DNA from: Nitrospirales bacterium
GTDB taxonomy: Bacteria > Nitrospirota > Nitrospiria > Nitrospirales > UBA8639
Assembly: GCA_965223675.1 (NCBI GenBank)
Contig: OZ245013.1
Location: 1,569,169 to 1,633,168 of the forward strand
DNA length: 64,000 bases
Direction of reading: 5' to 3'
Both the position numbers and the translations under genes were made by a program. A model generated the notes under the pieces. That model had not been told where the DNA came from. It saw nothing but the letters and a program-made list of their open reading frames with translations, and did no database searches. This document shows positions 16,306-63,239 of the stretch, in pieces. The number at the start of each line of letters is the position of its first letter. The stretch's first letter is position 1.

Positions 16306-16309
16306 CGAT

Positions 16310-21932: not shown

Positions 21933-21962
21933 CGTGCTAATTCCAGGGGCAGAATAGCCCAG

Positions 21963-23114: not shown

Positions 23115-23128
23115 GAATGAGTTCCATT

Positions 23129-35039: not shown

Positions 35040-35065
35040 ACCACCTACCCTTCCCTAGGTTGTGT

Positions 35066-36454: not shown

Positions 36455-36578
36455 CTCAAACACTCCCTGTTAGTTAGACGCATCCTGCCTGTTGCGGAAA
36501 CTTGCACTAACAATCGACTCCTGACTCACACACAAATCGCTTCATCTTTACTCATTTGGGCGATGAAGTTTCTTTTGA

Positions 36579-36965: not shown

Positions 36966-36996
36966 AGTATCCTCCCTCCGTTAATGTACGGAGCAG

Positions 36997-37031
36997 GAAT
37001 GGGCAAGACCTTCAACTGACCTTGCCCATTC
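36997..37031 (-). terminator. stem-loop immediately downstream of fliC (terminator or attenuator)
   Basis: Perfect 11-bp inverted repeat GAATGGGCAAG-N13-CTTGCCCATTC, 10 nt after the fliC stop. There is no clear U tract, so termination may be partial. Confidence 0.5.
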
Positions 37032-37041
37032 TTTACATCGT

Positions 37042-40294: not shown

Positions 40295-40444
40295 ACCCGA
40301 AAATCGGTAGACGGAAAACGAGAAACGATATAAGAAAATATTGAACGCTTTGGTAGATTGAAATATTTATTTGAGGTGGTCGATTCCTCAAACACGAAGT
40401 TGAGTCTTGAATCAATTCCTCGTCTAGCGTCTTACGTTTCACGA

Positions 40445-42265: not shown

Positions 42266-42278
42266 ATACTATTCCTCT

Positions 42279-47025: not shown

Positions 47026-50000
47026 CTAAGAATTTGCGACAGCCTTGAGATCTACTTCGCCATTCTCAATGGCACGCTCCAAATCTTGAAGTCCCTCATA
47101 GTCTGGGCTGAGAAGTTGTAGAGTTTGTAAATGTGATTGGGCCTCGTAAATATTTCCTCGACGAACCTGAACCCCCGCCAATGCATATCGCATGTCACAA
47201 TTCGCTGGATTCCGCTCTACAAAGTTCGTGAGGCATGTCACTAACGCATTCCAATCAGCTAATTCAGTACCGACTTGAATTAACCAGTTCATGATTTCCA
47301 CATCATCAGGATTTTGATTCCAGGCTATCTTAAGCGTGTTCCACGCTTGTTTCGTTTTCCCTAAACCTACGTACGCCATTCCTAATCCCATTTGGGATTT
47401 TGTGGAATTGTCACCATCTTGAATAGCACGCTGAAATGCTGTAACGGCATCGACAAACCTTTGACATTGGATATGACAAACACCTTGAATATTCCATAAA
47501 TCTCCGTCATCGTTTTTATAGACAAATGCCTTGTCGAGGTGGCTCTGTGCACAGTGTATGTCACCCCGACTCAATGCCAATTTTGCGAGTACTTTCCGCA
47601 CATCAAGATCCTCTCTTGATTGAAGAACACGTTGAAAGAAGCTTTCACTTTCTCGGCCCAGGTTCATACTCGCACAGGTCTCACCTAACCATTTCAGAAT
47701 TTCAGAGTCGTCCGGCCACTCCCTCTCCCCTCTCAAGAGTTTATCAATTTCGTCTTTTAACCCTGAACTGGCTTCTGCTCCACTCTTTTTCCACCGAAAA
47801 AGAAGACGTTGAAGATCAGCAACGTTCTTGCTTTCCTGCGAATCATTAGTTGTCTGAAGAAGCCTGTAGATATATCTCCCCACCCCCCCCTCACTTGACG
47901 TTTCTAATTTAAGCCCATCTTCAAACGCCATAAAATCTTCATCGACGCAAATCGTGTTCCCCCATCGCTTCAGAAACAGTTCAACATTGTGGCTTTCATG
48001 ATTTTTTCTTCCCGGGCTTTGACTCTCTAAGTGATACATCCAACTTTTAGGCTGATAGACAATCTTCCCTCCTCGTTCTCCAATCCTTAGACAGAGATCG
48101 ATATCTTCAAATCCATTCTTGTAGTGTTCGTCATATCCCTCAGCGCTTTCAAACCAAGGACGCTTCACCAGCATGCAAGCGGCCGTCACCGCCTGAAACT
48201 CTCTTCGACGATTTCCAATTCTTCCATCATTGGGTAACCCACGATAGATGTGATAGGGCGTTAAGAGATTCCGACTAAATACCACCCCTGCATGCTGTAG
48301 AGAGCCATCAGCAAACAGAAGTTTGCTGCCCACAATCGCAATGTCATTGCTGGATTCAGCTTCTGCTACCAAGCACTTTAGCCATCCTTCCTGCGGAATT
48401 GTGTCATTATTCAGAAAGACCAGGTGCTTTCCTCGAGCCGCCTGTGCACCCTGATTGCAGCCCCTGGCAAACCCAAAATTTTCTTCATTCGAGATAATCT
48501 GCACATCCCCCTTGAGGGTTTTTAAGAATTCGTGCGTTCCATCGGTAGAATGATTATCCACGACAATCACTTCATAACTCACACTATCTGTAACCTTCGC
48601 CAGTTGAATAAGACATTGCTGGGTCAATTCTACCTTATTAAAAACTGGAATAATGATTGAACAGTCATATGGAAAGGAGTCAGGATTCTCTTTTTGATTA
48701 ATTACATCTCCAGCCTTTTGTGTAGCATTCGGATGACGCCTATACGTTCGATATTTTTCATGAATAATCTTCTGAGTTTTTAGAAAATCGTCAGGTCGCT
48801 GACTGGTCGTCGATGTGCCATCTGTGCGCCAGGTAAACTCAGCTGTCACAGACTTTATGTGATGCAAAGAAAAACACCGAGAGAGACGAATGATTAAGTC
48901 CCAATCTTCATGGGTGGAAAGTGTCTCATCGAATCCACCTACACGATCCACACACGACTTTGCATGCATGAGACATAATATCGGGATGTAGTTCTGTCGG
49001 AGAATCGCCTCTTTATTGAAATCCACTGAGTAGGGCACATCCCGGTCTTTCCTAATATACTGGCCGTTTTCTTTTATCTGCAGAACTCGATGCGCATCAG
49101 TATACGCCACTTGACAATCTGAGTTTTCTAAGCAGGATACAAGGGTCTCGATATGGTTCTCATAAAATCGATCGTCATCATCAAGATACGCGATATATTT
49201 CCCCTTAGAGAGTTTTATGCCCATATTTCGTGCATGAGACCGTTCTTTGTTTGCACCAAGACGAAGATATACTATCTTTTCTGAACCGGAGAGTGATGAG
49301 AGTTGCGTTTCCACATCACACCCACCATCATTAATCACGATCACTTCTACAGATTCATAGGTCTGGGCAAGAACACTTTTCACGGCTTCGACGAGGCGTT
49401 CTGGACGGTTAAACGTGGGAATAATCACCGAAACCATCGGCTGGTCTTTAGCGGAAACTTCGTCAGGTGATAGATCCGGAGACGCCTGTTCCATAAAAGA
49501 ATACTCCTTCTCCCCAAGACTGTTTTGAAGAGGATTCAAAGAATTGTCCTGATCGTTATCACGAAAATGTTTCATTTCTGACCCTTCCTGATTCAAAAGC
49601 TCCTGATTAGACATCCCTCCTGTGTGACGTTGGGTCAATTGACGAATCTTACCTGCCTCCTCAGACTTGCCATTTCGGGCGAGACAGCTAGACAGTAGCC
49701 AGTATATTTCTTCGCATGTTGGATAATGTTGAACGATTCGGTCATAGACTCCATGAAGTCCTTCAATGTGATTGCACAGATCCAGGGCACTTGCAAGGCC
49801 TAACAGTTCACATTCTTGTTCGGGAATATCAATACCGCGACTATACTGGCTCTGACTATTTATTCGATAGACAAAATAATCTTTCCAAAAATTAATCTGT
49901 TCACACCGAGAAAGCTTCGATTGATGCGCGGCAGAAATTTTGGTCCATTCATCCGCACGTGTTTCAAACGGCGCCACGACAGATTTCGACTCCGCTCGAC

Positions 50001-50619
50001 CTCCTTCCCTTGATTCACCAAGTATATGATCGATGTAATGGAAGACTTTCCCATGTGACGTGATTCTTAACCAGAACTCATAGTCAATTCCATATGGCAA
50101 ATCTTCCCGAAATTCACCCATTTCATCTAACAATGACTTCGAGTAAAACATGGAGGGCTGAAAAAGACCGTGCCCATTAAACCACCGAGCGACAACTGAA
50201 TGTGTGATCGGATATTTAGGAATATGCAGTCGAAGGGCGTCACCATTCTCATTAATAAACAAACCTTTTCCATACAAAACATATGATTCAGATAGTGTTG
50301 CTGCCTTCGAAACAACCTGCTGAAACACTCCTGCGTTCGAATACCGATCATCGGCCCCGATCCAGCCAATGATGTCGCCGGTAGCCATACGAATAGCTTT
50401 ATTGAGTGCCTCTGCCTCTCCATGATCAGGCTCAGAGATCCATTTAAGATGAGAATATTTTTTGAGAACTTCCACTGTTCCGTCCGTTGAGGCACCATCG
50501 ACAATAATATGCTCAAAATCCTGGAAGCTCTGGGCGAGAACACTTTCAATACATTGTGGAAGAAAGTCTGCACAATTGAACGCCGGTGTCACGATAGAAA
50601 TCTTAGGATATGCACTCAT
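47026..50619 (-). CDS. 1197-aa multidomain protein: three GT2 glycosyltransferase domains plus C-terminal TPR repeats
   Basis: GT2 no. 1 at aa ~6-225 (ISIVTPAFN...IIVDGASTDGT). GT2 no. 2 at aa ~396-600 (VSVIIPTFN...VIVINDGG...LDDDD). GT2 no. 3 at aa ~653-870 (CSIIIPVFN...VIVVDNHSTDGT...NFGFARGCNQG). TPR-like helices at aa ~975-1180. Confidence 0.85.
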   Translation of the reverse strand: MSAYPKISIVTPAFNCADFLPQCIESVLAQSFQDFEHIIVDGASTDGTVEVLKKYSHLKWISEPDHGEAEALNKAIRMATGDIIGWIGADDRYSNAGVFQQVVSKAATLSESYVLYGKGLFINENGDALRLHIPKYPITHSVVARWFNGHGLFQPSMFYSKSLLDEMGEFREDLPYGIDYEFWLRITSHGKVFHYIDHILGESREGGRAESKSVVAPFETRADEWTKISAAHQSKLSRCEQINFWKDYFVYRINSQSQYSRGIDIPEQECELLGLASALDLCNHIEGLHGVYDRIVQHYPTCEEIYWLLSSCLARNGKSEEAGKIRQLTQRHTGGMSNQELLNQEGSEMKHFRDNDQDNSLNPLQNSLGEKEYSFMEQASPDLSPDEVSAKDQPMVSVIIPTFNRPERLVEAVKSVLAQTYESVEVIVINDGGCDVETQLSSLSGSEKIVYLRLGANKERSHARNMGIKLSKGKYIAYLDDDDRFYENHIETLVSCLENSDCQVAYTDAHRVLQIKENGQYIRKDRDVPYSVDFNKEAILRQNYIPILCLMHAKSCVDRVGGFDETLSTHEDWDLIIRLSRCFSLHHIKSVTAEFTWRTDGTSTTSQRPDDFLKTQKIIHEKYRTYRRHPNATQKAGDVINQKENPDSFPYDCSIIIPVFNKVELTQQCLIQLAKVTDSVSYEVIVVDNHSTDGTHEFLKTLKGDVQIISNEENFGFARGCNQGAQAARGKHLVFLNNDTIPQEGWLKCLVAEAESSNDIAIVGSKLLFADGSLQHAGVVFSRNLLTPYHIYRGLPNDGRIGNRRREFQAVTAACMLVKRPWFESAEGYDEHYKNGFEDIDLCLRIGERGGKIVYQPKSWMYHLESQSPGRKNHESHNVELFLKRWGNTICVDEDFMAFEDGLKLETSSEGGVGRYIYRLLQTTNDSQESKNVADLQRLLFRWKKSGAEASSGLKDEIDKLLRGEREWPDDSEILKWLGETCASMNLGRESESFFQRVLQSREDLDVRKVLAKLALSRGDIHCAQSHLDKAFVYKNDDGDLWNIQGVCHIQCQRFVDAVTAFQRAIQDGDNSTKSQMGLGMAYVGLGKTKQAWNTLKIAWNQNPDDVEIMNWLIQVGTELADWNALVTCLTNFVERNPANCDMRYALAGVQVRRGNIYEAQSHLQTLQLLSPDYEGLQDLERAIENGEVDLKAVANS
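47883..47890 (-). repeat. G8 homopolymer (coding strand) inside the triple-GT2-TPR gene
   Basis: Counted directly: plus strand c-a-CCCCCCCC-t. The coding strand GAG GGG GGG GTG GGG encodes EGGVG (aa ~909-913), between GT2 no. 3 and the TPR region. Confidence 0.95.
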
Positions 50620-50681: not shown

Positions 50682-51791
50682 TTACGAGTAAACATGATTC
50701 ATTTTGATTAATGCTCGCCCGACCTCTCCTGAATCCATAGCACGTACAACCTCATTGATTTCCTCAAGAGGATGTTCGTGAGTAATGAGCTGACCTAAAG
50801 GAAGGTCACCGCTGAGATATTTTTCAACATACAGACAAATATCACGTTCGGGAACCGTTTCCCCTCCCCACGTTCCTATCAGCTGTTTTCCCTTGATCAG
50901 ATCAAATGGATCGATTGCGATGGTCTCTCCATACGACACATTTCCCGCTAGAACACACAGTCCACCATTCGTACGCACCACACTGAATGCGTTCTCCATT
51001 GTTGTACGACTTCCAACCGCTTCAATGGCATAGTCAACCCCGTGGCCATTGGTAATTTCTAATATCTCTTTCGTCACATCTACTAATCGTGCATTCAAAG
51101 TATGAGTGGCTCCAATTGAACGAGCTTGTTCAAGCTTGTGATCGTAGACATCAACTGCGATAATCTTTTGAGTTTTCAGACAGCCCGCAGCCATCACAGC
51201 ACTCAGCCCGATTCCTCCCAGTCCAAAGACAGCCACACTCTTATCCGATTGTACCCGAGCTGTATTGAATACGATGCCAGCTCCGGTTGGAATAGCACAT
51301 CCCAACAATGCTGCCTCACGCAATGGCATGCTTCTAGGAATAGGTGTCACACGATTCTCGCTGGTAACGGTATGGCACATGAATGTACTGATGGCACCTG
51401 AGTTAATCATGCCTTTTTCGCTCTTGTATTGTGTCGCAGGAACTTCTCCCCCTTTCCCTTTGATCCATGATAAGACAACATGGTCGCCAGGCCTTACCTT
51501 CGTAACAGCAGATCCTACTTCCCGTACAATTCCTGACCCTTCATGCCCCAATGTATGAGGCAAAAACGGGTCAGGACCTTTTTGGCCCTGAATCTCCATC
51601 AATTGCGTCCGACAGACCCCACTGTAAGCCACCTCAACGAGGATCTGTTTGGGTTTCAAAGGAGGTAAAGTTACGGTGATGAGAGAAAGTGGTTCACCGG
51701 TTTCAAATAACACGGCGGCTTGAGTCGTTGACACCTTCCTCAAGCCTTCAGATACACGCTCCTTCTTCTGATCAATCAATGACGTTCCCAT
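50682..51791 (-). CDS. zinc-dependent medium-chain alcohol dehydrogenase
   Basis: GVCRTQ...GHEGSGIV Zn-binding pattern and a GLGGIG NAD-binding motif. Confidence 0.85.
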   Translation of the reverse strand: MGTSLIDQKKERVSEGLRKVSTTQAAVLFETGEPLSLITVTLPPLKPKQILVEVAYSGVCRTQLMEIQGQKGPDPFLPHTLGHEGSGIVREVGSAVTKVRPGDHVVLSWIKGKGGEVPATQYKSEKGMINSGAISTFMCHTVTSENRVTPIPRSMPLREAALLGCAIPTGAGIVFNTARVQSDKSVAVFGLGGIGLSAVMAAGCLKTQKIIAVDVYDHKLEQARSIGATHTLNARLVDVTKEILEITNGHGVDYAIEAVGSRTTMENAFSVVRTNGGLCVLAGNVSYGETIAIDPFDLIKGKQLIGTWGGETVPERDICLYVEKYLSGDLPLGQLITHEHPLEEINEVVRAMDSGEVGRALIKMNHVYS

Positions 51792-51805
51792 TCCTCACGG
51801 ACCCA

Positions 51806-52465
51806 TTACGCTGCGAGAAACCAATAATAGTCACCAGTGTATTCAGCTTCTTGAAATACCTTTTTCCAATCCCGTACATCCATGTAGGTCAATGCTGTCA
51901 GATTCCATTTCAATAACTGCTCACGTTCTTCTTCCGTCCTCCAGGCATCCATCGTCACGAACGCTGGGCCTTTCGACACTCGTTGAATTTCTTTCAAGGC
52001 TTGCCTGCAATTTTCAAGATTGAGATTGTGAACCGTATTGATAGAAATCACTAAATTAAAAGAATCGTCTGGAAATGGCAGGTCTTTGGCATTGCCAAGC
52101 TGAAGATACGGTCGAACCGATTCAAGACTGTGCTCAAGGGCATAGTTGGAGATATCTACCCCAGCTACTGTTAAGCCGGGAAGCAATTCTTTAAAATCGT
52201 GGAGCATATACCCTTTTGCACAGCCAACGTCTAGCACACTCGATTCATTCGTCAATCCGTAAAATTCAGCAAACCGCTTGACCGTTTCCTGCCAAAATCG
52301 AGGATGATAGGAGTATCCCCCGTACCCATACAGTCGATCACCATCGAAGTATTCTTTCCCAAACTTTCTCGCGACCTGACGGTGCTTCTCTTTGATAAGA
52401 GCCCCACGCTCATCAATCGGTCTTTTTGATTGAGGATAACGATCTAAAAGATTCACTTCCCCCAT
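51806..52465 (-). CDS. class I SAM-dependent methyltransferase
   Basis: VLDVGCAKGYML motif I and FNLVISINTVHNL. Confidence 0.8.
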   Translation of the reverse strand: MGEVNLLDRYPQSKRPIDERGALIKEKHRQVARKFGKEYFDGDRLYGYGGYSYHPRFWQETVKRFAEFYGLTNESSVLDVGCAKGYMLHDFKELLPGLTVAGVDISNYALEHSLESVRPYLQLGNAKDLPFPDDSFNLVISINTVHNLNLENCRQALKEIQRVSKGPAFVTMDAWRTEEEREQLLKWNLTALTYMDVRDWKKVFQEAEYTGDYYWFLAA

Positions 52466-52572
52466 TGATAGCCTCCTTCACGCCAACAATTCTGTCTATG
52501 CATATGTCTATGCTGCAGTCACGGTTCGTTATGAACCCATTTGAAAATGAGGTGACAGACGCAGACCTGTGC

Positions 52573-53823
52573 TTACGCCGTCTTTTTTAAGGTGTCTACC
52601 GCTACCGTTGCAGCATTCGAATCGGCACCTTGACGATCTTTCACGATCTTCTTATCGCCGATTTGATAAAACTCCTTCTCCATCCCGTTGATCGATTTAC
52701 CTGTAATCTTAGTAAAAATATCGAAAACCTGCGCAATCGTTTGTTCAATCGTTGAATAACGATATGTGCCCAGACGTCCTGTGGTATACACACCATCAGG
52801 AAGGGATTCCGTATACTGTTTTGCCCGATCAAGATATTTATTTATCATATAGGGATACAGTTTCCCGTTTTTTGATGGAATCTCCATAACCAGCAAAGTA
52901 TCTGGCGATTCGTAATTCGTGAGTTTTTTGTACTCGACAATTCGAGTATAGGCTTCTTTTTGAGTGTAGTGGAGAAAGCGGATATTATCCGGACACACTT
53001 CTTTGCAGGGGAGCACAAACGGGATGAAATCACGCCCAGCATAAGGAAGTTCTCCAAAGCGGTGTTGACAGACTTCTTCAATAGGAATCGAACTGACGAT
53101 AATATCTCCTTCGAGTCTGGTGCCATCTTGGAGGATGACGGCCTTATGATCGAGGTCAAAGTTCCTGACGGTTTCACCTAAAATAACCTCAAGACCAGTT
53201 GTCGTTTTATTGAAGTATGAATTGTAGCCATCGTAAGCCGTAGGATAGGCCAAGTGCGAACCTTTATAGGCAATTCGTGATCCAGTATTGATCGGATTAT
53301 CTTTCGCAGACCACGCGAATGTGTCCAATTCTTTATTACTACTGATCATCCACATCTTTTCTGAATAGTCTTTCACGAACATTTCATAGAGAGTCTTTCC
53401 AACATTTCCAATCCAATAATCTTCAAAGTTACTGTGAACTTTTTCGAGGTCACGAGCCGCCAGTTCCTCTCGAATCTGTTTTTCTTTGCGCATCCGTGGA
53501 AGATCGTCTTCATGAATTGGATAAGAGAAAAATCTTTGCTCACTTTCAACATAACTATTGAGCTCAAAATCAAGTTGCTTCAATTCAATGAATTTGTTGA
53601 CCCATTCAAAGATCTTGTCACTATAGCCATAGTACACTCGAGGACCATTCATGTAGGGATGACCGCCGTAGAAAAACGTACGACATCCACCTCCAAGATA
53701 CTTCTCTTTTTCGACAATGGTGCAATCCCAGCCTTCTTGTTTCAGCAAGTATCCGATCGTGCATCCTGAGAATCCACCACCAAGAATTATTGCTTTTTTA
53801 CTCATGAGCAGCCTCCGTAACAA
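52573..53823 (-). CDS. UDP-galactopyranose mutase-like FAD-dependent enzyme
   Basis: AIILGGGFSGCTIGYLL...VEKEKYLGGGCRT...GHPYMNGPRVY... resembles the Glf N-terminal dinucleotide-binding and GG motif pattern. Confidence 0.65.
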   Translation of the reverse strand: MLRRLLMSKKAIILGGGFSGCTIGYLLKQEGWDCTIVEKEKYLGGGCRTFFYGGHPYMNGPRVYYGYSDKIFEWVNKFIELKQLDFELNSYVESEQRFFSYPIHEDDLPRMRKEKQIREELAARDLEKVHSNFEDYWIGNVGKTLYEMFVKDYSEKMWMISSNKELDTFAWSAKDNPINTGSRIAYKGSHLAYPTAYDGYNSYFNKTTTGLEVILGETVRNFDLDHKAVILQDGTRLEGDIIVSSIPIEEVCQHRFGELPYAGRDFIPFVLPCKEVCPDNIRFLHYTQKEAYTRIVEYKKLTNYESPDTLLVMEIPSKNGKLYPYMINKYLDRAKQYTESLPDGVYTTGRLGTYRYSTIEQTIAQVFDIFTKITGKSINGMEKEFYQIGDKKIVKDRQGADSNAATVAVDTLKKTA

Positions 53824-54854
53824 TCTTTACAGTAATCACGAACTTCAACGTTTGGATCTTTCATTGCATCCCGAAAGGATGTGTACTTATTGAACCAAAT
53901 ATTCTGAAAATCATCGTAGTGTCCGAAGTCAACTACCTCTTGATTCGCAATGTAGCAGCAAGGCACGATGTGCATATCAGTCGTAAGATAGACTCGTTGG
54001 AAGGGAATTTGACAGAAACGCTCTTTGGTGAAAGAAGGATGCTGCCACCAAAACACGTCGATTCCCAGCTCTTGGCCAATCTCCATAGCCCGCTGAAGAT
54101 CTTCACTCGAAAAATCAAAAGGTGTCGACTCTGAGTTCTCGTCCTCACGCCCATAGTTGTGCATAGCAAAGCTGTAACACATTTCCTTGAAGCCAAGGTC
54201 TGCAAACACTTTTGGGAAATCATAAAATTCGTGTTTGTTCCCCTCTTGAATGACAACCCAGGCCCGCGTTTTCGTGCCATGGCCGAATTGAGTGTTATAG
54301 TCATTCAAGATCTTGGCGTTCCGCAAAAAGAGTTCCCATTCACCCCCTTGCCGGATATCTTCAAACGTTTCTTTCGATGCCCCGTCACAAGAAAGATTGA
54401 TGTCATGAATCCCCATGTCGATAAGATGCTTATAGGCATCCTCCTTATGAAGAAACGACCCGTTGAGTGTGGTGCGCACCCAAAGCTTTTTGCTAAGGGC
54501 ATATTCGCACATTCTCAGAAAGTCCTTATTCATGAGTGGCTCACCCACTCCTTGGATCTTCACTTCAATCAGCCCATACTGTTCGTCGATAAAACGCTTG
54601 AAATGCTCGAAAGACATTTGCTTTCGTTTCACGGAAAACAAGGCTGAAGGATCACACATCTTACATTTAAAGTTACAGACTTGATTAGGTTCGATATCAC
54701 AGAGCAGGGGCAAATACTTTACGTGGGAGCTAAATCGCGATGACTTGAACTTTAGATAGTTCCACAATCGCTTAGGATGCTGTAAACAGCCTAACGTTCG
54801 ATAGAAGTTGTAATGAAACCTACTTGGCACCGGCGTTCGATTAGGCATCTTCAT
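53802..54854 (-). CDS. radical SAM enzyme with a SPASM/twitch-like C-terminal Cys cluster
   Basis: CNFKCKMC (CX3CX2C), a GGEP-like GVGEPLM motif, and C-terminal cysteines (VPCCY...CKDCYGGC). Confidence 0.8.
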   Translation of the reverse strand: MKMPNRTPVPSRFHYNFYRTLGCLQHPKRLWNYLKFKSSRFSSHVKYLPLLCDIEPNQVCNFKCKMCDPSALFSVKRKQMSFEHFKRFIDEQYGLIEVKIQGVGEPLMNKDFLRMCEYALSKKLWVRTTLNGSFLHKEDAYKHLIDMGIHDINLSCDGASKETFEDIRQGGEWELFLRNAKILNDYNTQFGHGTKTRAWVVIQEGNKHEFYDFPKVFADLGFKEMCYSFAMHNYGREDENSESTPFDFSSEDLQRAMEIGQELGIDVFWWQHPSFTKERFCQIPFQRVYLTTDMHIVPCCYIANQEVVDFGHYDDFQNIWFNKYTSFRDAMKDPNVEVRDYCKDCYGGCS

Positions 54855-55642
54855 AGGTATTCTGCGTTACACCCAAAAACGTCAGTGAGGGTCTGTTGGA
54901 CACAATAACGAAACTCTTTCTCGCCTGATGGAGTATCAAATACATCCATATTTGGACGACAAGAAGGTTTGGGGAAAATGAGAGATCGATCTAATCCACG
55001 GATGTCCGCGATGAGGTCAATGGCATCAAAATACGTGAGCTGTGAATTCGCCGATACGAGAATGTTGGTACTGGTCTTCAATAATTCAGGATCGCCAAGA
55101 ACACCAAGAACATGTTTCATACTGACAGGAGCAAAGTAGTAATCGTTGAACGGTTCAATTGTCTGACCCGCTTCCAGTTCATTGACCCATTTTGCTAATC
55201 TACCGGTTTCTTTATTGATGACTTTCCCCAGCCTAACAACAGTAGCCCGTCTACCATGAAGATACTCTTCTACTTCCTTTTTTTGTGATCCATACTCGGC
55301 ACCAGAATCGTTAACTAAATCACTTGAAAGAAATACAACGTGGATATCTTGTTTTAAGAGTCTGTCAATGAGACGTTGTGTTCGTTCGACATTGATATAC
55401 CAAGTTCTCTCACGTTCTCTTTCACAGATTTTGGTGCTAGTAATGGCTATGCATACGTAGGCAATTGACACAAAATCTGGAATCTTCCATCGCCCTAACT
55501 CTGTGTCTAGATCTAATAGTTGATGCTGAGTCCCCTTGCGTCTCGTCGTTCCAACAACCTGAGTAGCACGCGCCTTAAAAAGCTCGAAAAGAGCGCTGCC
55601 AATAACGCTATGGCATCCAATAATCAGCGGCGTATCGCGCAT
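54851..55642 (-). CDS. short NAD(P)-dependent SDR, RmlD/sugar-reductase-like
   Basis: IIGCHSVIGSAL glycine-rich N-terminus and a YGSQK (YxxxK) motif. ATGA overlap with the downstream gene. Confidence 0.6.
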   Translation of the reverse strand: MRDTPLIIGCHSVIGSALFELFKARATQVVGTTRRKGTQHQLLDLDTELGRWKIPDFVSIAYVCIAITSTKICERERERTWYINVERTQRLIDRLLKQDIHVVFLSSDLVNDSGAEYGSQKKEVEEYLHGRRATVVRLGKVINKETGRLAKWVNELEAGQTIEPFNDYYFAPVSMKHVLGVLGDPELLKTSTNILVSANSQLTYFDAIDLIADIRGLDRSLIFPKPSCRPNMDVFDTPSGEKEFRYCVQQTLTDVFGCNAEYL

Positions 55643-56310
55643 GCCAGAGCTAAAAAATAATTGGCCATCTTAGAAAATCCAGTATGAACGACCTCGTCAT
55701 TCATTGAAAAAATAAAGACGTTATAGAAATATTCCTCTAACAAACTTTTCATACCCTCATAATCTTTGCAATTCACATGACCGGCTCGACTTGGTGGAGA
55801 CGCATAGGGTTGAGAATGAATAGTGGGAGATCCGAGAATCAAGACTCCGTATGGATCCAATGAGTGTTGAATGTTTCGTATGAAGGCATGTTCATTCTCA
55901 GGATCGATATGTTCGAGTAGGTCTAACGAGTAGGCGGCATCAAATGTTTGATCGAAAGGGCTCTCCAAGATGTCGTGCTCAATGGCCGTCAACTTCCAAT
56001 CGTGATTCATTCGTGCTCTCACATCTTCGACAAAAACTGGATCAACGTCGGCAGCCGTCACATGCCCGACATGCTGCTGCACAATGCGAGTTCCAAATGC
56101 ATCGGCTGAGCCAACTTCAACAACACGTTTCCGACCTTGAAGCATCTTGGCAACGAACTTATAGCGCGCAAGCAAAAACACCAGTCGCTTGGGATCGTCA
56201 TGCCAGGTCTGGTTACTCATAATTCCGAGCTGTGTCAAACCATACTGCTCCTGAACGTCTATACAACGACTGTACTGTGGCTCTACTGTTTTTAGTGTCA
56301 CTTTACTCAT
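55624..56310 (-). CDS. class I SAM-dependent methyltransferase
   Basis: VVEVGSADAFGTRIV motif I and a FDAAYSLDLLEHI motif. Confidence 0.8.
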   Translation of the reverse strand: MSKVTLKTVEPQYSRCIDVQEQYGLTQLGIMSNQTWHDDPKRLVFLLARYKFVAKMLQGRKRVVEVGSADAFGTRIVQQHVGHVTAADVDPVFVEDVRARMNHDWKLTAIEHDILESPFDQTFDAAYSLDLLEHIDPENEHAFIRNIQHSLDPYGVLILGSPTIHSQPYASPPSRAGHVNCKDYEGMKSLLEEYFYNVFIFSMNDEVVHTGFSKMANYFLALACAIRR

Positions 56311-56317
56311 AATCGCT

Positions 56318-57223
56318 CTACGTATTCACAAGAGAATACGATCCACTTACGTTAAATTTTGGAATAATCTGCTGAACAAGCATAAAGTTTTTCTGGCTCC
56401 ACAGATCTGGGTTCTGAAGAATAACGAGTACTGCTTCATGTTGAAAATGATTCATGATGTTTCCCCAGATGAAAGACGGAACAATATCCTGAAATTCAGG
56501 CGAGTTAAGAAGATTAAAAATATTTTTCAACACGATGGACTGCTGCTTCCAATTTTTTCGGCCTACTTCGGAATGAGAGGTATCGCGAACTCTAAGGGTG
56601 ACAAGACATTCAGGAATAAAACACACCCCATAGCGCATCGCAACGACAAGCCACCCAAACCAATCGCTGTGCCAGAGCAATTCTGGGCGATAACCACCCA
56701 AATCCATGAACGGTTGTTTTTTGACCACGACCGTCGTTCCAGAAATCCAGTGCCCATTCACAACATGTGCGAACTCTCTTCCAGAAAAAAAACACGAGTT
56801 CTCTGACCAATGACTTCGTGATTCTGTCATAACACCCGAAGAGTGCAGGTAATACAGATCGCTACAGCAGATCCCTGCCTCAGGGTGTCGTTCTAGCATA
56901 GCCATAGATTTTTCGAGCCAGCTCGGGTCATTCGAGTCATCCATCGAGACAAACGCCACATATTCGGAATGGATCTCTTTAAGTGCACGATTAAAAGCAT
57001 AAACGACGCCTTGATTTCGTTCGCTGATTAATACACGGACGTGAGGATACTGAGCAGCAACGGCTTTGATCACCTCCAGACTATTGTCCGTAGATCCATC
57101 ATCTATGATGATCAGTTCGTTCGGTTGCCGAGTTTGTTTTAAAACACCCTCTACAGCCTGAGGGATCATTTCAGCATCATTGTAATTTGGCATAATGACA
57201 GCCAATGTTATCGCGTTAGCCAT
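56318..57223 (-). CDS. GT2 glycosyltransferase
   Basis: LAVIMPNYNDAEMI...LIIIDDGSTDNS...VSMDD (DxD). Confidence 0.85.
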   Translation of the reverse strand: MANAITLAVIMPNYNDAEMIPQAVEGVLKQTRQPNELIIIDDGSTDNSLEVIKAVAAQYPHVRVLISERNQGVVYAFNRALKEIHSEYVAFVSMDDSNDPSWLEKSMAMLERHPEAGICCSDLYYLHSSGVMTESRSHWSENSCFFSGREFAHVVNGHWISGTTVVVKKQPFMDLGGYRPELLWHSDWFGWLVVAMRYGVCFIPECLVTLRVRDTSHSEVGRKNWKQQSIVLKNIFNLLNSPEFQDIVPSFIWGNIMNHFQHEAVLVILQNPDLWSQKNFMLVQQIIPKFNVSGSYSLVNT

Positions 57224-57427
57224 AATGTCTTTCTAGGAAGAAAGCAATCTTTTCACATAGTCACAGAAATCAATTATCAGGACTCTGAACACTTACCTTA
57301 TCCAACTGAATCTTCGAACATACGTTTAGCATCTTCATTCTGGAGAAAATATGCGACTGAGTCAGAAGTCTTTGTCATCATTGCCTGAGTCTCATCAGCC
57401 AGTGAGTAGCTTCATCCACTATTACGC

Positions 57428-58453
57428 TCACGCCGCGTGTTGGTATTCTAAAGAAGAGTTAGATATCACCTGCCAGTTCTTGTCGATCCAGCTTGCAGTT
57501 TGTCGTAAGCCTTCATCAAGCGAAATTTGCGTGGACCATCCAAGCTCAGACCGACTTCGACTTGAGTCGATTTTATACGCCGCGTCCTGTCCTAGTCGTT
57601 CTTCAACGGTAACGGTTGACTCCGAAAAGTCTCTTCCGAACAAGAGACACAGTTGTTTCACGACATCTCTTACGGCAATTCCACGTTCTGGAGAGAAATG
57701 ATAAATCTTTCCAGAACTCCCGTGCTCCATAGCCAACAACTCACCTCTCGAGACATCACGAATGTGAATATAGGACTTCACGGCTTTCCCGCCGCCATGT
57801 AGATGAATCTTCTGTCTTGTTTTTAGTGAAATAATCGTTCGAGGAATAATCTTGAAAAGCTGTTGATGCGGACCATACACATTGGTTGCCCGAATCATCA
57901 CCAGTGGGAAATTGTAGTTTTTGACTAATGTAAAGAGATAAAGATCGGCTGCCGCTTTAGAGGCGGCATAGGGAGTACTAGGATTCAGTGGAGCCGACTC
58001 GGTCACACGGCCTTCACACGTTCCGTATACTTCTGGAGACGAGATGTGGACATATCGCTTGAGATATTCTCGTTCTTTGAGGGCATTCGTGAGTTTTGCC
58101 AGTGCCACAGCATTGGTTTGAAACCAATGCTCTGGATGCTGCCAACTTGGTGCGACTTCACTTTGCGCAGCAAAATTGACGATGTAGTCTGGTTTGACTG
58201 AATCCAAGAGTCGAATGATTCGATCACCATCAATATTGAGATCCATTTGATAAAAGGTAAATTTTGATCGGTCATGCCGCTTATACGGAAGAAAGGTCCC
58301 ATTTTTCTCTGCCGACCGACTCACGCCAACGACCGTATTGCGAGGGTCTTCCAAGAGTAGATCGATAAAATCACTTCCTGAAAAAGAATTACTTCCAATG
58401 ACGACAATCTTTCGTAACGTATTCGAACTAGTGATTAGTCCTCCGATATTCAT
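57428..58453 (-). CDS. NDP-hexose 4,6-dehydratase (RmlB-like extended SDR)
   Basis: VVIGSNSFSGSDF, NFAAQSEV, SSPEVYG and YAASKAAADL (YxxxK) motifs. Confidence 0.8.
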   Translation of the reverse strand: MNIGGLITSSNTLRKIVVIGSNSFSGSDFIDLLLEDPRNTVVGVSRSAEKNGTFLPYKRHDRSKFTFYQMDLNIDGDRIIRLLDSVKPDYIVNFAAQSEVAPSWQHPEHWFQTNAVALAKLTNALKEREYLKRYVHISSPEVYGTCEGRVTESAPLNPSTPYAASKAAADLYLFTLVKNYNFPLVMIRATNVYGPHQQLFKIIPRTIISLKTRQKIHLHGGGKAVKSYIHIRDVSRGELLAMEHGSSGKIYHFSPERGIAVRDVVKQLCLLFGRDFSESTVTVEERLGQDAAYKIDSSRSRSELGWSTQISLDEGLRQTASWIDKNWQVISNSSLEYQHAA

Positions 58454-58464
58454 GAAGTTCCTTT

Positions 58465-59523
58465 CTAAAATGGACCGACAAAGCTTCGATCTGGAACATC
58501 GAGCGGGTGAGAAGAGTGCTCCAAATCGATTTCTGTTATCTCTTTTTTATTCATTAAAGACCGGACGACATTCATGATTTGGATTGCGCGTGGGTAATAA
58601 TGCTCCGTTAACGCATGAGAAGTCGGCGTAGGACAATCCGGCAACCCGATTCGCTTCGGAGAACATTTAAGCTCGAAAAATGCATGTTCCACGACCAGAG
58701 AAACAATCTCTGCCGAGACACCAAACGAGGTCCACCCAGTATCCGCCACCACGAGACGTCCGGTCTTACAGACTGATTTCACGATGAGCGAGTCATCTAA
58801 AGGACGCAGACTCCGAACATCCACAACTTCAGCCCCAATCCCATCTTCTGCCAGCATGTTTGCCGCTCTCATGGCTTCGAGTGTCATATAAGAAGTCGCC
58901 ACGATCGTCACATCAGAACCTTGTCTGAGCACTCGACTCGTCCCTAAAGGAACTCGATAGAGACCGTCTGGCACATGATCAATCGTGTCATGCAGCCAGC
59001 GATGTTCGAGAAACACCACAGGGTTAGGATCTTCGATACTCGCGATCAGTAATCCCTTAGCATCATAGGCCGTTGTCGGCATGACTACCTTGAGCCCTGG
59101 AATATGCGAAAACCAGGCTTGTAAGCTTTGGGAATGTTGAGGGCCCTGTCCCCACCCCCTTCCGATCATTAATCGGATAACTAAGGGAACACTGTGCTGG
59201 CCACCGAACATGTACTGCCAATTCGCCGCTTGATTCACCATTTGTTCTACAGCTAATAAAGCAAAATCCATACGTTGGTGAGTCATAACGGGCTTCATGC
59301 CCATTAACGCGGAACCAATAGCCACGCCGGTCATTGCATTTTCCGAGGTGGGCATATCCATAACTCGATTTTCACCATAATCTTCTTCTAACCCTCGCGT
59401 ACTCCCGAATATCCCTTTGGGATCCGGAACGCCCAACCCCATCACATACACAGCGGGGTCTTTTTCCAGGCAAAGATCCAAAGCTTCTCTGATGGCTTCA
59501 ACGTATGTTCGTTGTCGAGTCAT
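58465..59523 (-). CDS. TPP-dependent 2-oxoacid dehydrogenase E1 component, beta subunit-like
   Basis: MTRQRTYVEAIREAL...DVMGLGVPDP...MPTSENAMTGVAIG, typical of an E1-beta/transketolase pyrimidine-binding domain. The ATG at 59523 overlaps the alpha stop (ATGA). The track ORF start at 59667 is an artefact. Confidence 0.85.
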   Translation of the reverse strand: MTRQRTYVEAIREALDLCLEKDPAVYVMGLGVPDPKGIFGSTRGLEEDYGENRVMDMPTSENAMTGVAIGSALMGMKPVMTHQRMDFALLAVEQMVNQAANWQYMFGGQHSVPLVIRLMIGRGWGQGPQHSQSLQAWFSHIPGLKVVMPTTAYDAKGLLIASIEDPNPVVFLEHRWLHDTIDHVPDGLYRVPLGTSRVLRQGSDVTIVATSYMTLEAMRAANMLAEDGIGAEVVDVRSLRPLDDSLIVKSVCKTGRLVVADTGWTSFGVSAEIVSLVVEHAFFELKCSPKRIGLPDCPTPTSHALTEHYYPRAIQIMNVVRSLMNKKEITEIDLEHSSHPLDVPDRSFVGPF

Positions 59524-60557
59524 GCGGCTTTTTCTCTGGATGGTACGGAATGCACAGCATACACATGTTGAAATAACTGCTCCTTCGGTGGAAACTGACT
59601 TTTTTGGGCGTATCGTACGGCGGCCTCTATCTCCGACGAGAGACGTTCCACATGACCACGTTCCCAAGACGCATCAAACCCGCCTCGCTGAGACAAAACA
59701 TGTTTTGTCTTTTCGATTGGGCACCTTGTGTGCCATTCTTCAAACTCCGACAGCGTTCGATATCCTAAGTGATGATCAAAGTTTGGCCCGCAATGTTCTC
59801 GCCATCGATAGGTTTCAAATTCGAGAAATGTTGGGCCACCACTGTTCCGTGCTTTGTGTACCGCCTGTGAAGCTGATTCATAGACGGCACGCACATCATT
59901 GCCATCTAGTCGCTTACCCTCACATCCATGCGCTTCCGCAATGAGCATGACATCACGCGTATGAGGTTGCCGAACTGATAAAGGGGAATACACCGAATAC
60001 AAATTGTTTTCACAGACGAATATGATTGGCAGGTTTTTCAGCACGGCAAAGTTCACACTTTCGTGAAATGTCCCTTCTTCGGTAGCTCCTTCTCCAAAGT
60101 ACACGACGGTGACGATAGGCTGTCCTTTCAACAGAGCACCAAATGCCGCGCCGACAGCAATTGGAATTGAACTCGCGACGATTGGGGTCGCGCCTAAAAA
60201 TCCAGCGGACAGGTCAACCAAGTGCATCGACCCACCTTTTCCCTTGGCGCATCCGCTTTCCTTTCCATAAATCTCAGCGAGCATCCGACTGAGATCTCCC
60301 CCTTTGGCTAAATAATGTCCGTGAGAGCGATGACCGCTCAAGACCACATCATTTTTCCTTAATGTTGCGCTGACTCCAACCGGAATCGCTTCTTGCCCAA
60401 TACACAAATGTACCGGGCAACGCATCTCCTTGTCGGTATACAGGTCAGCAATTCGCTCTTCGACCATCCTGATTCGAAGCATTTCAAGATAAAGATATCG
60501 CAGCAGATCAGAAGAAAGAGATCGATCGATGCGTGTCATGTGATCAGTAGTTTTCAT
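59520..60557 (-). CDS. TPP-dependent 2-oxoacid dehydrogenase E1 component, alpha subunit-like
   Basis: The TPP-binding motif region (YFGEGATEEGTFHESVNFA...PIIFVCENNLY) matches the GDG-X-N pattern of E1-alpha. Confidence 0.85.
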   Translation of the reverse strand: MKTTDHMTRIDRSLSSDLLRYLYLEMLRIRMVEERIADLYTDKEMRCPVHLCIGQEAIPVGVSATLRKNDVVLSGHRSHGHYLAKGGDLSRMLAEIYGKESGCAKGKGGSMHLVDLSAGFLGATPIVASSIPIAVGAAFGALLKGQPIVTVVYFGEGATEEGTFHESVNFAVLKNLPIIFVCENNLYSVYSPLSVRQPHTRDVMLIAEAHGCEGKRLDGNDVRAVYESASQAVHKARNSGGPTFLEFETYRWREHCGPNFDHHLGYRTLSEFEEWHTRCPIEKTKHVLSQRGGFDASWERGHVERLSSEIEAAVRYAQKSQFPPKEQLFQHVYAVHSVPSREKAA

Positions 60558-60594: not shown

Positions 60595-61599
60595 TTAAAT
60601 CAGTTCGACTTCTTTCATACGCTTGATATTGAAATACCGACTGTCATCGAAGGAATTTGGAATTTTCCCTTCTTGAAAAGCCGTGATGAGATCCCCAATA
60701 GCATCTCGAACCGAATGGTTAGGAGTGAACCCTAATACGCGGGCAATCTTTTCTGACGAGATATGATAGGAACGATGATCATCGGTCTCCGTATGGATAA
60801 TCTCGACATCCTGCCCAACTTTACTCTGAACCATTTCTGCAATGTCTGACACGCGATGATTATGATATCCGGCATTAAAAATTTCCCCATTTATTTTTTC
60901 AGACGGCCAATTTAAGCATTGCGTATAGACTTCCACCATGTCCTGAATATGGATGTTTGGCCGTTTCTGCTGCCCGCCAAACACAGTAATCCTTCGATTA
61001 TTGACTGCATGATTCGTCAAAATATTCACCGTCAGATCCAACCTCAGTCGCGGAGAATAGCCGCAGACCGTGGCAGGGCGAATGACCACCACTTCAAATC
61101 CCGCACGTTGTTTTTTCAATAAGATCTCCTCACAGAGCGCTTTGTACTTGGAATAATCCGTCAAAGGGGTCAGTGGAAGATCTTCTGTTACATTTTCCTC
61201 TTTCTTCACACCGTACACAGAAGATGACGAAGCATAGATAAAACGTTTCACGCCAAGCTCGCAAGCTCGGTCTACTAAACCGGAAAAAGCATCATAGTTG
61301 ATCGAACGACCCAAAGATGGGTTCAGTTCAAAACTTGGATCGTTTGAAATGCAAGCTAAATGTATCATGACATCGCATCCGGGAATTATCTGCTCTACTA
61401 GTCTATGGTCCCTAATGTCTCCGCGAACTTCCTCGAGATTATGATGCCCTCGTACCGATTCAAGGACTGACTCTCCATAGAGATAGAGATCCAGAACCTT
61501 CACTCGATAGCCTTCGTCCAGTAATCGAGGCACTAACGCTGAGCCAACATATCCAGCTCCTCCAGTTACCAACACCGTCTTGCAACCTTGAGCACTCAT
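60595..61599 (-). CDS. NAD-dependent nucleotide-sugar epimerase/dehydratase (extended SDR)
   Basis: VLVTGGAGYVGS Rossmann motif and YSKYK (YxxxK). Confidence 0.8.
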   Translation of the reverse strand: MSAQGCKTVLVTGGAGYVGSALVPRLLDEGYRVKVLDLYLYGESVLESVRGHHNLEEVRGDIRDHRLVEQIIPGCDVMIHLACISNDPSFELNPSLGRSINYDAFSGLVDRACELGVKRFIYASSSSVYGVKKEENVTEDLPLTPLTDYSKYKALCEEILLKKQRAGFEVVVIRPATVCGYSPRLRLDLTVNILTNHAVNNRRITVFGGQQKRPNIHIQDMVEVYTQCLNWPSEKINGEIFNAGYHNHRVSDIAEMVQSKVGQDVEIIHTETDDHRSYHISSEKIARVLGFTPNHSVRDAIGDLITAFQEGKIPNSFDDSRYFNIKRMKEVELI

Positions 61600-61703: not shown

Positions 61704-63239
61704 TCACTTCAACAGTGATTCAACACTTCGTTGCAGTTGAACTCGATCAAGAGAAGCACGATTTCCCACAGTCATCACAGCTTGAGCCCCTGCTAAATTT
61801 CCGATTAATCCAACGACATCTGAAGGAACCCCCATCGCCACACACGGAGCAGTTAAGGCAAACAACGCATCTCCTGCTCCAATTCGATCAACAACTTTGA
61901 CCGCTAAAGAGGGAGTTTCAAAGAACCCATCATGCTGGTGATAAAGCAACGTTCCCTTATTCCCCTGGGTAACCATGACGGACGGACATCTCAAATCCTT
62001 CGACAGACTTTTTACGATAGACTTCAAGTTTCCACGAGCATCTCGCCGATCCACCCGTATCTCTTTTTCTTGTATGGAGATGTAGTCAGCCTTCCTATAT
62101 TTTGAGATTGTGTGAAACCCCATATTCGCAGCATTAATTTGAGTATTCACCGCTAAAAACGGGGCATGTTCCCCCACAAGATGAATTGCGGCTGGCGACA
62201 GTAACCCATGCCCGAAGTCTGCTACAATCGCCAGATCGCAATGTGCGAGTTTTTCCTTCAGCGTGTCACGCAGTTCCATATCTTCTCGATCGGTAAGAAC
62301 CGTATCGTTCATCTCATACACTTCCAAGAGTTTGGAAAATTGATATTGCTCAATGAATCGACGTTTAACGATGGTGGGAGAGCCAGACTTAAAGATAAAG
62401 GTCGGTTCGATATTGGTTTTTAGATTTTCTCGGATGAATCGTTCGTGCGGGTGCATCGTCCCCAAGTACGACACGAGCTCCACGCGATCACAGAAGCTTG
62501 CAAGATGGTTCGCAACCGCCAAACTACCACCTAACTGTTTTTCTTTTGAGGCATACTGCATAGCGAGGATAGGTTCTTTAGAGGATTTCCCTAACGCATG
62601 GCAATACACGTATTCATCGATGATCGCTTCTCCAATCACCAACACTCTGAGAGAACGCATGCGCTCAAGGTATTCAATAATGTTTTCTGCTCTATACTGT
62701 TCTCGAAATTTTGTCAGCCACCCATTCAAGTCTGGCGGAAACAAGGGAACATAACGGTTCAATAAACTCGTGGAGCTAAACTGCACGTCATTGGTGATTT
62801 CAAGACGTCCGCCAACGGATTGTACGGCAGCCTGCTCCCGTGCAAGTCCACCGGTTAAATCGGGGCGATCCTGGCTATAGTCCGGCCCTTTCACGTAGAC
62901 ATCTGGTTTTAAGGCTTTGATCGCATTCTCGGCTGTCTCCCAGCGATTAATGGCGACGTAGTCCACCGCATCCAAGGCCGCAATACCTTCAACTCTCAAA
63001 TCTTGCTGAAATGCAGGTCGATGAGGACCTTTATTCACATAACGATCGGGCGTAACCGTCACGACCAGCACATCTCCCAGCGCTTTGGCTTCTTCCAAAT
63101 GACGAATATGACCGACATGAAGTAAATCAAAGACTCCATGACAGTGCACAATGGTCTTTCCCCGACAACGAGCGTCTTGAAGAAGCAATTCTAACTCTTC
63201 AAGGGATTGTGCTTTTCTCAGGACGGCTACACTTGCCAT
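61704..63239 (-). CDS. bifunctional cytidylyltransferase-fold nucleotidyltransferase / PfkB-family sugar kinase (domain order reversed relative to HldE)
   Basis: N-terminal HCHGVFDLLHVGHIRHLEEA (HxGH nucleotidyltransferase motif). The C-terminal ribokinase-like domain ends with VVDRIGAGDALFA (PfkB GAGD motif). Confidence 0.8.
   Translation of the reverse strand: MASVAVLRKAQSLEELELLLQDARCRGKTIVHCHGVFDLLHVGHIRHLEEAKALGDVLVVTVTPDRYVNKGPHRPAFQQDLRVEGIAALDAVDYVAINRWETAENAIKALKPDVYVKGPDYSQDRPDLTGGLAREQAAVQSVGGRLEITNDVQFSSTSLLNRYVPLFPPDLNGWLTKFREQYRAENIIEYLERMRSLRVLVIGEAIIDEYVYCHALGKSSKEPILAMQYASKEKQLGGSLAVANHLASFCDRVELVSYLGTMHPHERFIRENLKTNIEPTFIFKSGSPTIVKRRFIEQYQFSKLLEVYEMNDTVLTDREDMELRDTLKEKLAHCDLAIVADFGHGLLSPAAIHLVGEHAPFLAVNTQINAANMGFHTISKYRKADYISIQEKEIRVDRRDARGNLKSIVKSLSKDLRCPSVMVTQGNKGTLLYHQHDGFFETPSLAVKVVDRIGAGDALFALTAPCVAMGVPSDVVGLIGNLAGAQAVMTVGNRASLDRVQLQRSVESLLK

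Follow-up and report, generated by a model that had tools for sequence, protein, structure and literature searches.

What could an enzyme built like the E1 component of pyruvate dehydrogenase (PDH) do among sugar-modifying genes that lead up to a flagellin gene? The question is raised by a 64,000-nucleotide stretch of a Nitrospirales bacterium (contig OZ245013.1, positions 1,569,169 to 1,633,168, numbered here from 1 and referred to as the window), in which a thiamine diphosphate (ThDP)-dependent E1α (59520-60557) and its partner E1β (58465-59523) are encoded within a glycosylation island on the minus strand, as are all window genes for which coordinates are given below. The reading that we favour, by analogy with known sugar-branching enzymes and with a probability of roughly 55%, is that the E1 pair adds a pyruvate-derived two-carbon (C2) unit to a keto sugar nucleotide, which is probably of the heptose type. 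An earlier reading of the same DNA (the original prediction) had proposed a stand-alone E1 pair acting in a branched, methylated deoxysugar pathway. All genes that it listed are present at the positions it had given, on the minus strand, as judged by Pfam or profile matches, and its view of the pair as stand-alone and dedicated to glycan biosynthesis is borne out by the search for E2 and E3, the E1 tree and the conserved sugar-gene context; its ideas on gene order, the extent of the cluster and the sugar precursor are revised below.

Membership in the E1 superfamily is clear for both subunits, as PF00676 in E1α (203 bits) as well as PF02779 and PF02780 in E1β (118 and 117 bits) score above the Pfam cutoffs. 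The stop codon of E1α overlaps the start codon of E1β as ATGA, a coupling that had been predicted and can be read directly in the sequence, and the ThDP/Mg motif is kept in the window E1α as GEG…ENN (in the clade as a whole, the x of G-x-G…NN is D in 55 proteins, E in 28 and R in 2). The bacterium is a marine relative of Nitrospira, with 82% identity to the E1α of Nitrospira sp. M1 and 88% to the E1β of Ca. Nitrospira salsa. Phosphonopyruvate and sulfopyruvate decarboxylases, which are split ThDP enzymes of the coenzyme type, were ruled out as candidates, since they have the pyruvate oxidase/acetolactate synthase (POX/ALS) fold and the protein here has an E1_dh domain.

The pair could be an ordinary pyruvate or acetoin dehydrogenase E1, with E2 and E3 encoded elsewhere and an incidental location among sugar genes. 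Its best hidden Markov model matches are indeed the E1α and E1β models of PDH, with E1β reaching 312 bits vs. a cutoff of 321 (NF006667), and it shares with PdhAB and AcoAB the fold, the domain families, the ThDP motif and ~40% identity. However, both subunits stay below every curated PDH cutoff (TIGR03182 294 vs. 394 bits, TIGR03181 220 vs. 411, NF008854 303 vs. 454), and the genes that should accompany such an E1 are missing. Searches for E2 and E3 used phmmer on all six-frame open reading frames, with Lpd and AceF of Escherichia coli as queries, the latter both in full and as its separate catalytic and lipoyl domains. As predicted, no homologue of either was found in the 64-kb window, nor within flanks of up to ±10 kb in any of the 83 related loci that were analyzed (a scan of one genome per species had returned 80), whereas the same method recovered E2 directly after E1β in all six E2-linked control loci (1e-31 to 1e-37; Desulfotalea, Enterococcus, Streptomyces fungicidicus, Leisingera, Embleya, and Streptomyces sp. 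BHT-5-2), and for Enterococcus it recovered E3 too. In a neighbour-joining tree built from 94 E1α sequences (the window, the 83 metagenomic/genomic loci, plasmid loci of Azospirillum, Solidesulfovibrio and Streptomyces, and the six E2-linked references), every E2-less E1α fell on one side and the six E2-linked ones on the other, a split present in 90 of 100 bootstraps; the phylogenetic check against dehydrogenase E1 that had been proposed for this locus thus sets the pair apart. The motifs of E1α differ as well, with CPVHLxIGQEA and YRWREHCGP in the clade and GFxHLYxGEEA and YRFRAHSM in the E2-linked counterparts. Because neither E2 nor E3 was found in the flanks of any of the 83 loci, the controls were all positive and the E1α sequences separate, we conclude that the E1 pair does not form part of any 2-oxoacid dehydrogenase complex and falls in a large ThDP clade of the heterotetramer type that is E2-independent. 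Taken with the C-terminal tail of E1β and with a linkage to sugar-nucleotide genes that is conserved across at least 15 phyla, both described below, this makes an ordinary dehydrogenase, already disfavoured, the least probable of the explanations considered here.

The tail consists of ~27 extra residues of E1β (residues 326-352, …LDVPDRSFVGPF, encoded together with the stop codon at 58465-58548), which end in the pattern …(L/H)DVPDxxFxGPF. A GP[FY] terminus was found in 77 of 78 cassette E1β and the full motif in 71 of them, and the tail recurs in all 120 of the top 90%-identity clusters and in 64 of the top 150 50%-identity representatives, among which are fused α-β proteins (P0242, P0251, and P0256). 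It was found in none of the six E2-linked reference E1β, and no solved E1β has it, each ending at the residue aligned to position 325 of the window protein. At the sequence level, the tail therefore looks like a hallmark of the E2-less clade; in the more distant E2-less pair of Solidesulfovibrio magneticus it is missing. The C-terminus of the β subunit presumably contributes to the E2-docking site in the Geobacillus complex of E1 with the peripheral subunit-binding domain (PSBD; 1W85), and the tail would project from this region, a further point against an ordinary dehydrogenase. An AlphaFold2 model of the E1β monomer (36-sequence alignment) had a mean predicted local distance difference test (pLDDT) score of 58, with ~30 for the tail, which is too poor to place it.

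If the pair is not a dehydrogenase, its neighbours should tell what it is dedicated to. The related loci come from at least 15 phyla, including archaeal metagenome-assembled genomes (MAGs; Woesearchaeota and Methanomicrobia), and comprise Nitrospirota, Desulfobacterota, Verrucomicrobiota, Planctomycetota, Elusimicrobiota, Omnitrophota, Nitrospinota, Bacteroidota, Binatota, Chlamydiota, Chloroflexota, Bdellovibrionota, Saccharibacteria, and all major proteobacterial classes; a cultured carrier is Azospirillum oryzae KACC 14407, where the cassette lies on a plasmid. Partner genes were counted in the 45 loci with enough flank. E1β stands beside E1α in all 45, and the most frequent companions are homologues of genes that surround the pair in the window. 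On its downstream side (transcription runs from high to low coordinates) the window has SDR341, an extended short-chain dehydrogenase/reductase (SDR) of the RmlB/GMD-like type and a putative 4-oxidase or 4,6-dehydratase (57428-58453; 31 of 45 loci), which starts 11 nt past the E1β stop codon. The original prediction had placed the pair after this gene; in transcriptional order, the pair comes before it. The cluster had also been taken to begin at 60557, and it continues through three further genes and off the window end at 64000. These are SDR334, a GalE-like extended SDR with a Pfam Epimerase domain and an 'SSSSVYG' motif (60595-61599; 30 loci), a 511-aa protein with an N-terminal cytidylyl/adenylyl-transferase-like nucleotidyltransferase domain (CTP_transf_like in Pfam) and a C-terminal PfkB domain, i.e., HldE-like with reversed domain order and hereafter NTase+PfkB (61704-63239; 30 loci), and the 3' two-thirds of SDR350, a GalE/LegB-like extended SDR (63242-64000; 19 loci). 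The latter gene runs past the window end; up to base 64000 it matches residues 99-349 of a 350-aa Nitrospira sp. M1 orthologue with 85% identity (tblastn), and its best NCBIfam matches, GalE and LegB, are below cutoff.

Further partners are the class I S-adenosylmethionine (SAM) methyltransferase MT219 (219 aa, assigned by Pfam; 51806-52465; 29 loci, 45-86% identity), which often directly flanks E1α or E1β, a GmhA-like SIS isomerase (16 loci), a zinc-dependent alcohol dehydrogenase (Zn-ADH, 'ADH369') with PF08240 and PF00107, a candidate reductase for an introduced keto group (50682-51791; 14 loci, 39-61% identity), a second class I SAM methyltransferase, MT228 (Pfam Methyltransf_25/11; 55624-56310; 14 loci, sometimes beside an RmlD-like gene), as well as DegT aminotransferases and a YerE-like ThDP enzyme of the ALS family (12 loci each). 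One or more of the three SDR families occur in 36 of the 45 loci, and just 4 lack all seven partners counted as core (the three SDRs, NTase+PfkB, SIS, MT219, and Zn-ADH). The gene directly upstream of E1α is most often SDR334 (20 loci), followed by NTase+PfkB (13) and MT219 (10), and the gene directly downstream of E1β is most often SDR341 (15) or DegT (10). The same genes thus accompany the pair in dozens of loci from many phyla, and its sugar-gene context is not a matter of chance.

The set of tailoring genes that had been proposed to act after the branching step stands in part. Zn-ADH and MT219 do co-occur with the pair, which fits reduction and methylation after branching. Orthologues of the radical SAM, GLF-like, TylF-type and triple-GT2 genes of the window were found in none of the 83 related loci, and they are therefore local tailoring genes outside the E1-linked core. 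A conserved core with a variable tailoring section, as is usual in surface-glycan loci, is also seen in close relatives: the downstream part in Nitrospira sp. M1 encodes a split transketolase, short-chain reductases and a protein resembling C-methyltransferases, and in Nitrospirales NPIRA01 a YerE-like gene comes straight after SDR341. Such a gene is absent from the window, and it occurs together with the E1 pair in 16 of the 83 loci (L004, 13186-14949; e.g., also L010, 10156-11967), which brings two types of ThDP carboligase into one sugar cluster. Distant E2-less pairs (~43% identity) were additionally seen on Solidesulfovibrio magneticus pDMC1 (L091, 7886-14870) and on an Azospirillum ramasamyi plasmid (L092, 7638-12297), where the neighbours are those of glycan loci, namely kinase, NUDIX, radical SAM, GDP-fucose-synthase-like and DegT genes.

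Which sugar is handled is suggested by the activation genes. The best models for NTase+PfkB are those of HldE, at scores far below their cutoffs (NF008454 180 vs. 521 bits, rfaE_dom_I 125 vs. 345, rfaE_dom_II 111 vs. 181.5), the SIS protein is best matched by GmhA models, also well below cutoff, and a GmhB-like phosphatase with the signature DRDG…TNQSG lies inside the cassette in ~10 loci. GT9, the glycosyltransferase (GT) family of heptosyltransferases that use ADP-heptose, is represented in the island beside flagellin. The system resembles the ADP-heptose pathway (GmhA, HldE, and GmhB) with GT9 in that an SIS isomerase, PfkB and nucleotidyltransferase domains and a phosphatase of the HAD-IIIA type travel with the E1 pair, and is unlike it in the reversed domain order of NTase+PfkB and in scores far below the equivalog cutoffs. 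Since GmhA-like, HldE-like and GmhB-like partners occur together with GT9 beside flagellin, we propose with moderate confidence a heptose-type precursor derived from a ketose phosphate, rather than the NDP-glucose-type hexose (NDP, nucleoside diphosphate) of the original prediction. A canonical lipopolysaccharide (LPS)/outer-membrane cluster is also encoded in the window (10165-25459), with two GT9 heptosyltransferases and a GmhB-like gene (11347-11925) at 10.2-13.0 kb, as well as lpxK, waaA, an msbA-like ABC transporter gene, lpxB, lpxI, lpxA, skp, and bamA. As the canonical set for LPS-core heptose is thus present elsewhere, the island is a second, divergent system.

The same activation genes allow another assignment, in which the substrates of the E1 pair would be sugar phosphates, as they are for 1-deoxy-D-xylulose 5-phosphate synthase (DXS) or transketolase: a C2 unit from pyruvate or hydroxypyruvate would be joined to an aldose phosphate, and the resulting unusual ketose phosphate would be turned into a nucleotide sugar by the SIS, PfkB and nucleotidyltransferase activities. 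The two domains of E1β are common to transketolase and DXS, NTase+PfkB is the gene directly upstream of E1α in the 13 loci mentioned above, and five loci (L030, L042, L043, L057, and L071) combine SDR350, NTase+PfkB and E1 without SDR334 or SDR341, four of them with a GmhA-like SIS gene; split transketolases co-occur in 10-12 loci. Even so, by established mechanism an aldose-ketose isomerase of the GmhA type could not act on a pyruvate-derived 1-deoxy-ketose, the commonest immediate neighbours of the pair are nucleotide-sugar SDRs, and the known E2-less E1 precedents use NDP-keto sugars (PMC12247030), so that we regard action on sugar phosphates as unlikely, albeit the strongest of the alternatives.

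The carbonyl that the favoured reading calls for would be formed by the SDRs. One of them, SDR341, had been read as an NDP-hexose 4,6-dehydratase, an assignment that needs correction: its score of 206 bits is below the RmlB cutoff (TIGR01181, 365), and in an alignment to E. coli RfbB the T-D-E of the dehydratase is replaced by S/T-P-E in 36 of 36 orthologues. The window protein keeps the YxxxK motif, but in 14 of the 36 its catalytic lysine gives way to arginine (YxxxR), an uncommon change among SDRs. GDP-mannose dehydratase works with T-S-E, so dehydration by SDR341 is conceivable as well. By score and residues, SDR341 is RmlB-like and not a canonical RmlB, with dehydration and simple 4-oxidation equally possible.

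Precedents for a sugar C2-branching enzyme of this architecture come from actinomycete antibiotics. E2-less E1 pairs termed 'αKADH2' install pyruvate-derived C2 branches on keto sugars (PMC12247030 section 2.2; PMC4753412), with knockout and feeding evidence for AlmDI/AlmDII in the aldgarose branch of aldgamycin and in-vitro carboligation of pyruvate and a ketone for KbDH-α/β of the kibdelomycin pathway (both as summarised in PMC12247030), while for AviB1/AviB2 (eurekanate) and Pau11/Pau12 (paulomycose) the C2-branching role is proposed (PMC12247030; PMC4753412). The branch is afterwards reduced, methylated, oxidised or transaminated (PMC12247030 section 2.2; PMC4753412). Like the pair studied here, αKADH2 pairs are separate E1α and E1β genes without E2 or E3 among NDP-sugar SDRs, followed by genes for reduction, methylation or transamination; unlike it, they belong to secondary-metabolite clusters of Actinomycetota and act on intermediates of the dTDP-6-deoxyhexose type, whereas the present clade extends over at least 15 phyla, archaeal MAGs included, and is found in clusters for surface or flagellar glycans with GmhA-/HldE-like, heptose-type activation genes. 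The branching enzymes known from Gram-negative LPS are of the single-chain YerE type (PMC9306805). YerE with YerF (yersiniose), ErwE and MygE share with the proposed reaction the ThDP-dependent addition of an acyl anion to an NDP-4-keto sugar, the reduction with NAD(P)H and the occurrence in Gram-negative surface glycans (PMC9306805), and YerE differs from E1αβ in its unrelated architecture, a single-chain, flavoprotein-type ThDP enzyme of the ALS/POX family. The AviB1/AviB2 and YerE comparisons drawn in the original prediction thus refer to real systems (PMC4753412, PMC9306805).

We prefer the C2 carboligase because the neighbourhood of the pair mirrors the logic of these precedents, with carbonyl-forming SDRs on both sides, a Zn-ADH or a short-chain reductase, methyltransferases and, in other loci, DegT. 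In the corresponding pathway, the conserved core (SDR350, NTase+PfkB, SDR334, E1α, E1β, and SDR341) together with MT219 and Zn-ADH would make a modified, probably heptose-derived sugar nucleotide. Pyruvate would be decarboxylated by the E1 pair to hydroxyethyl-ThDP, and the C2 unit would be transferred to a keto or aldehyde carbonyl of the sugar nucleotide, created by the flanking SDRs, to give an acetyl-branched or C2-extended sugar. The new ketone could then be reduced by Zn-ADH and the product methylated by the methyltransferases, before GT9, GT2 and GT1_2 enzymes move it to an acceptor on the cell surface, for which flagellin is the most plausible candidate. What we infer in this scheme is the heptose precursor, the donor (pyruvate), the position of the acceptor carbonyl, the order of the steps, and the target (flagellin).

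Two further fates of the ThDP intermediate were weighed against carboligation. The pair could supply an activated acetyl or acyl group, as acetyl-ThDP or on a carrier, for O- or N-acylation of sugars, with no C-C bond being formed. This would fit a 53%-identical E2-less pair on Streptomyces griseofuscus pSGRIFU1 (L086, 13974-19504; tail ending …FAGPY), which is followed by a 1100-aa condensation-domain protein, with genes for an acyl carrier protein (ACP), a phosphopantetheinyl transferase and a ketosynthase close by, and which suggests a system for acyl transfer from E1 to a carrier protein that is unrelated to sugars. It would also fit E2-linked plasmid relatives in which an ACP gene stands just after E2. 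These are operons of acsA, pdhA, pdhB, E2, and a small ACP (L087, 6157-11386; L089, 8057-13543; L090, 8211-13348) that recur in Desulfotalea, Streptomyces, and Leisingera, with E1 α and β fused in the latter; an ACP gene right after E2 is unusual. In the window island, though, where intergenic gaps measure ~200 bp at most, there is no ACP, condensation domain or acyltransferase, no redox partner is evident that could oxidise hydroxyethyl-ThDP, and acylation is usually carried out by acetyl-CoA-dependent acetyltransferases, which makes acyl supply improbable. The other possibility is cleavage of a C-C bond next to the sugar carbonyl, as in acetoin cleavage, by which a heptose-derived chain would be shortened or remodelled. 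AcoAB, which cleaves acetoin, is a member of this superfamily (PMC12247030 section 2.2.1) and the flanking SDRs could make the α-hydroxyketone that is needed, yet the leftover hydroxyethyl- or acyl-ThDP normally requires E2/lipoamide or another acceptor, none of which is encoded, and such a step is without precedent in sugar-nucleotide pathways; we consider it slightly more improbable still.

Several observations weigh against the C2 carboligase and its heptose-type, flagellar setting, and explain why our estimate is not higher. Where a YerE-like enzyme, the type that branches Gram-negative LPS sugars, is present, the E1 pair may have another role, and it is mainly on account of this frequent co-occurrence that the carboligase is held at only slightly better than even odds. 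The parallel with αKADH2 pairs is drawn from gene context and description. With tblastn, a plasmid collection returned no member from an actinomycete sugar cluster, and the actinomycete relatives found there were E2-linked or not associated with sugar genes. A close Streptomyces E1 relative, described above, adjoins a condensation-domain protein and an ACP with no sugar genes. The GmhA-/HldE-like scores are far below the family cutoffs and the sugar may be other than a heptose, while SDR341 is without the catalytic Asp, which casts doubt on where the acceptor carbonyl comes from. The window covers 64 kb, and E2 or E3 may be encoded elsewhere in the source genome. The clade as such is known from sequences and gene context. 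Finally, adjacency to flagellar genes was seen in just one other locus of the 83, from a Ca. Methylobacter oryzae MAG (L060, 19174-20940). In that locus fliD lies within 10 kb of the E1 pair, and a radical SAM gene takes the place of SDRs after the pair.

The flagellar placement in the window itself is clear, in agreement with the original prediction. The island spans 38.6-64.0 kb and beyond as an unbroken array of minus-strand genes from base 64000 down to flagellin, flaG, fliD and fliS, so that glycan biosynthesis and transferase genes are contiguous with the flagellin and other filament genes, the arrangement by which a flagellin glycosylation island is recognised. The filament genes (34647-37869) comprise flagellin (37042-37869), a flaG-like gene (36579-36965), fliD (35066-36463), and a fliS-like gene (34647-35039); flagellin and FliD were identified with Pfam, while FliS and FlaG were assigned by visual inspection of the translated sequences. 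With 275 aa, the flagellin consists mainly of the conserved N- and C-terminal helical regions, and its short central stretch is rich in Ser/Thr, i.e., plausible O-glycosylation sites. Among cell-surface acceptors, flagellin is the most plausible one for the island product.

Between the core and the filament genes, the island holds transferases and lineage-specific tailoring genes. SDR341 is followed by a GT2 glycosyltransferase (PF00535, 112 bits; 56318-57223), and MT228 by a short RmlD/epimerase-like Rossmann protein of 263 aa (54851-55642), whose matches are weak and confined to the N-terminal half (PF01370 3.7e-8, PF04321 1.2e-7). A radical SAM/SPASM enzyme (PF04055 and PF13186; 53802-54854) is a lineage-specific tailoring candidate, and so is a flavoprotein resembling GLF, the UDP-galactopyranose mutase (PF03275, 82 bits; 52573-53823), which stays well under the mutase cutoff (TIGR00031 91 vs. 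304 bits). Beyond MT219 and Zn-ADH follow a protein of 1197 aa that combines three GT2 domains with TPR repeats at its C-terminus (Pfam; 47026-50619), a TylF-type methyltransferase (PF05711, 82 bits; 45975-47015), and five glycosyltransferase-like genes assigned by Pfam (38636-45801), in which a GT9-like pair (38636-40294 and 44440-45801) flanks a Glyco_trans_1_2/DUF3880 trio (40445-42265, 42279-43370, and 43349-44443).

That a stand-alone E1 pair can serve as a C2-branching enzyme for sugars is already known from actinomycete antibiotics. Literature searches for E1 or pyruvate dehydrogenase together with O-antigen, virenose, flagellin glycosylation or heptose returned nothing relevant. Neither the large tail-bearing clade nor its association with heptose-type activation genes, its occurrence in surface-glycan loci across many phyla or its position in an island joined to flagellin was found described in the searchable literature. 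There may be overlap with Krug et al. 2024 (Angew. Chem. e202403535), which reportedly catalogues ~120 such clusters. More tentatively, and at somewhat less than even odds, we propose that the clade represents a hitherto unrecognised and very widespread pathway (at least 15 bacterial phyla and archaeal MAGs) to a C2-branched or C2-extended heptose-class sugar nucleotide by means of an E2-independent E1αβ carboligase, that the tail adapts the scaffold to work without E2, and that the product decorates the flagellar filament of this organism.

The proteins of this clade are routinely annotated as subunits of pyruvate, acetoin or α-ketoacid dehydrogenases, and most likely they function in glycan biosynthesis instead. 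This bears on how metabolism is reconstructed for Nitrospira, Planctomycetota, Chlamydiota, Omnitrophota, and many candidate phyla. The tail together with the absence of E2 offers a simple and testable sequence marker. From the cassette of six to eight genes, a new class of surface sugars can be predicted that are C-branched and have a higher carbon number, and for these Azospirillum oryzae KACC 14407 is a tractable cultured carrier. If the proposed chemistry is true, tertiary-alcohol-forming ThDP enzymes would extend beyond actinomycete antibiotics and would be of biocatalytic interest (PMC12247030).

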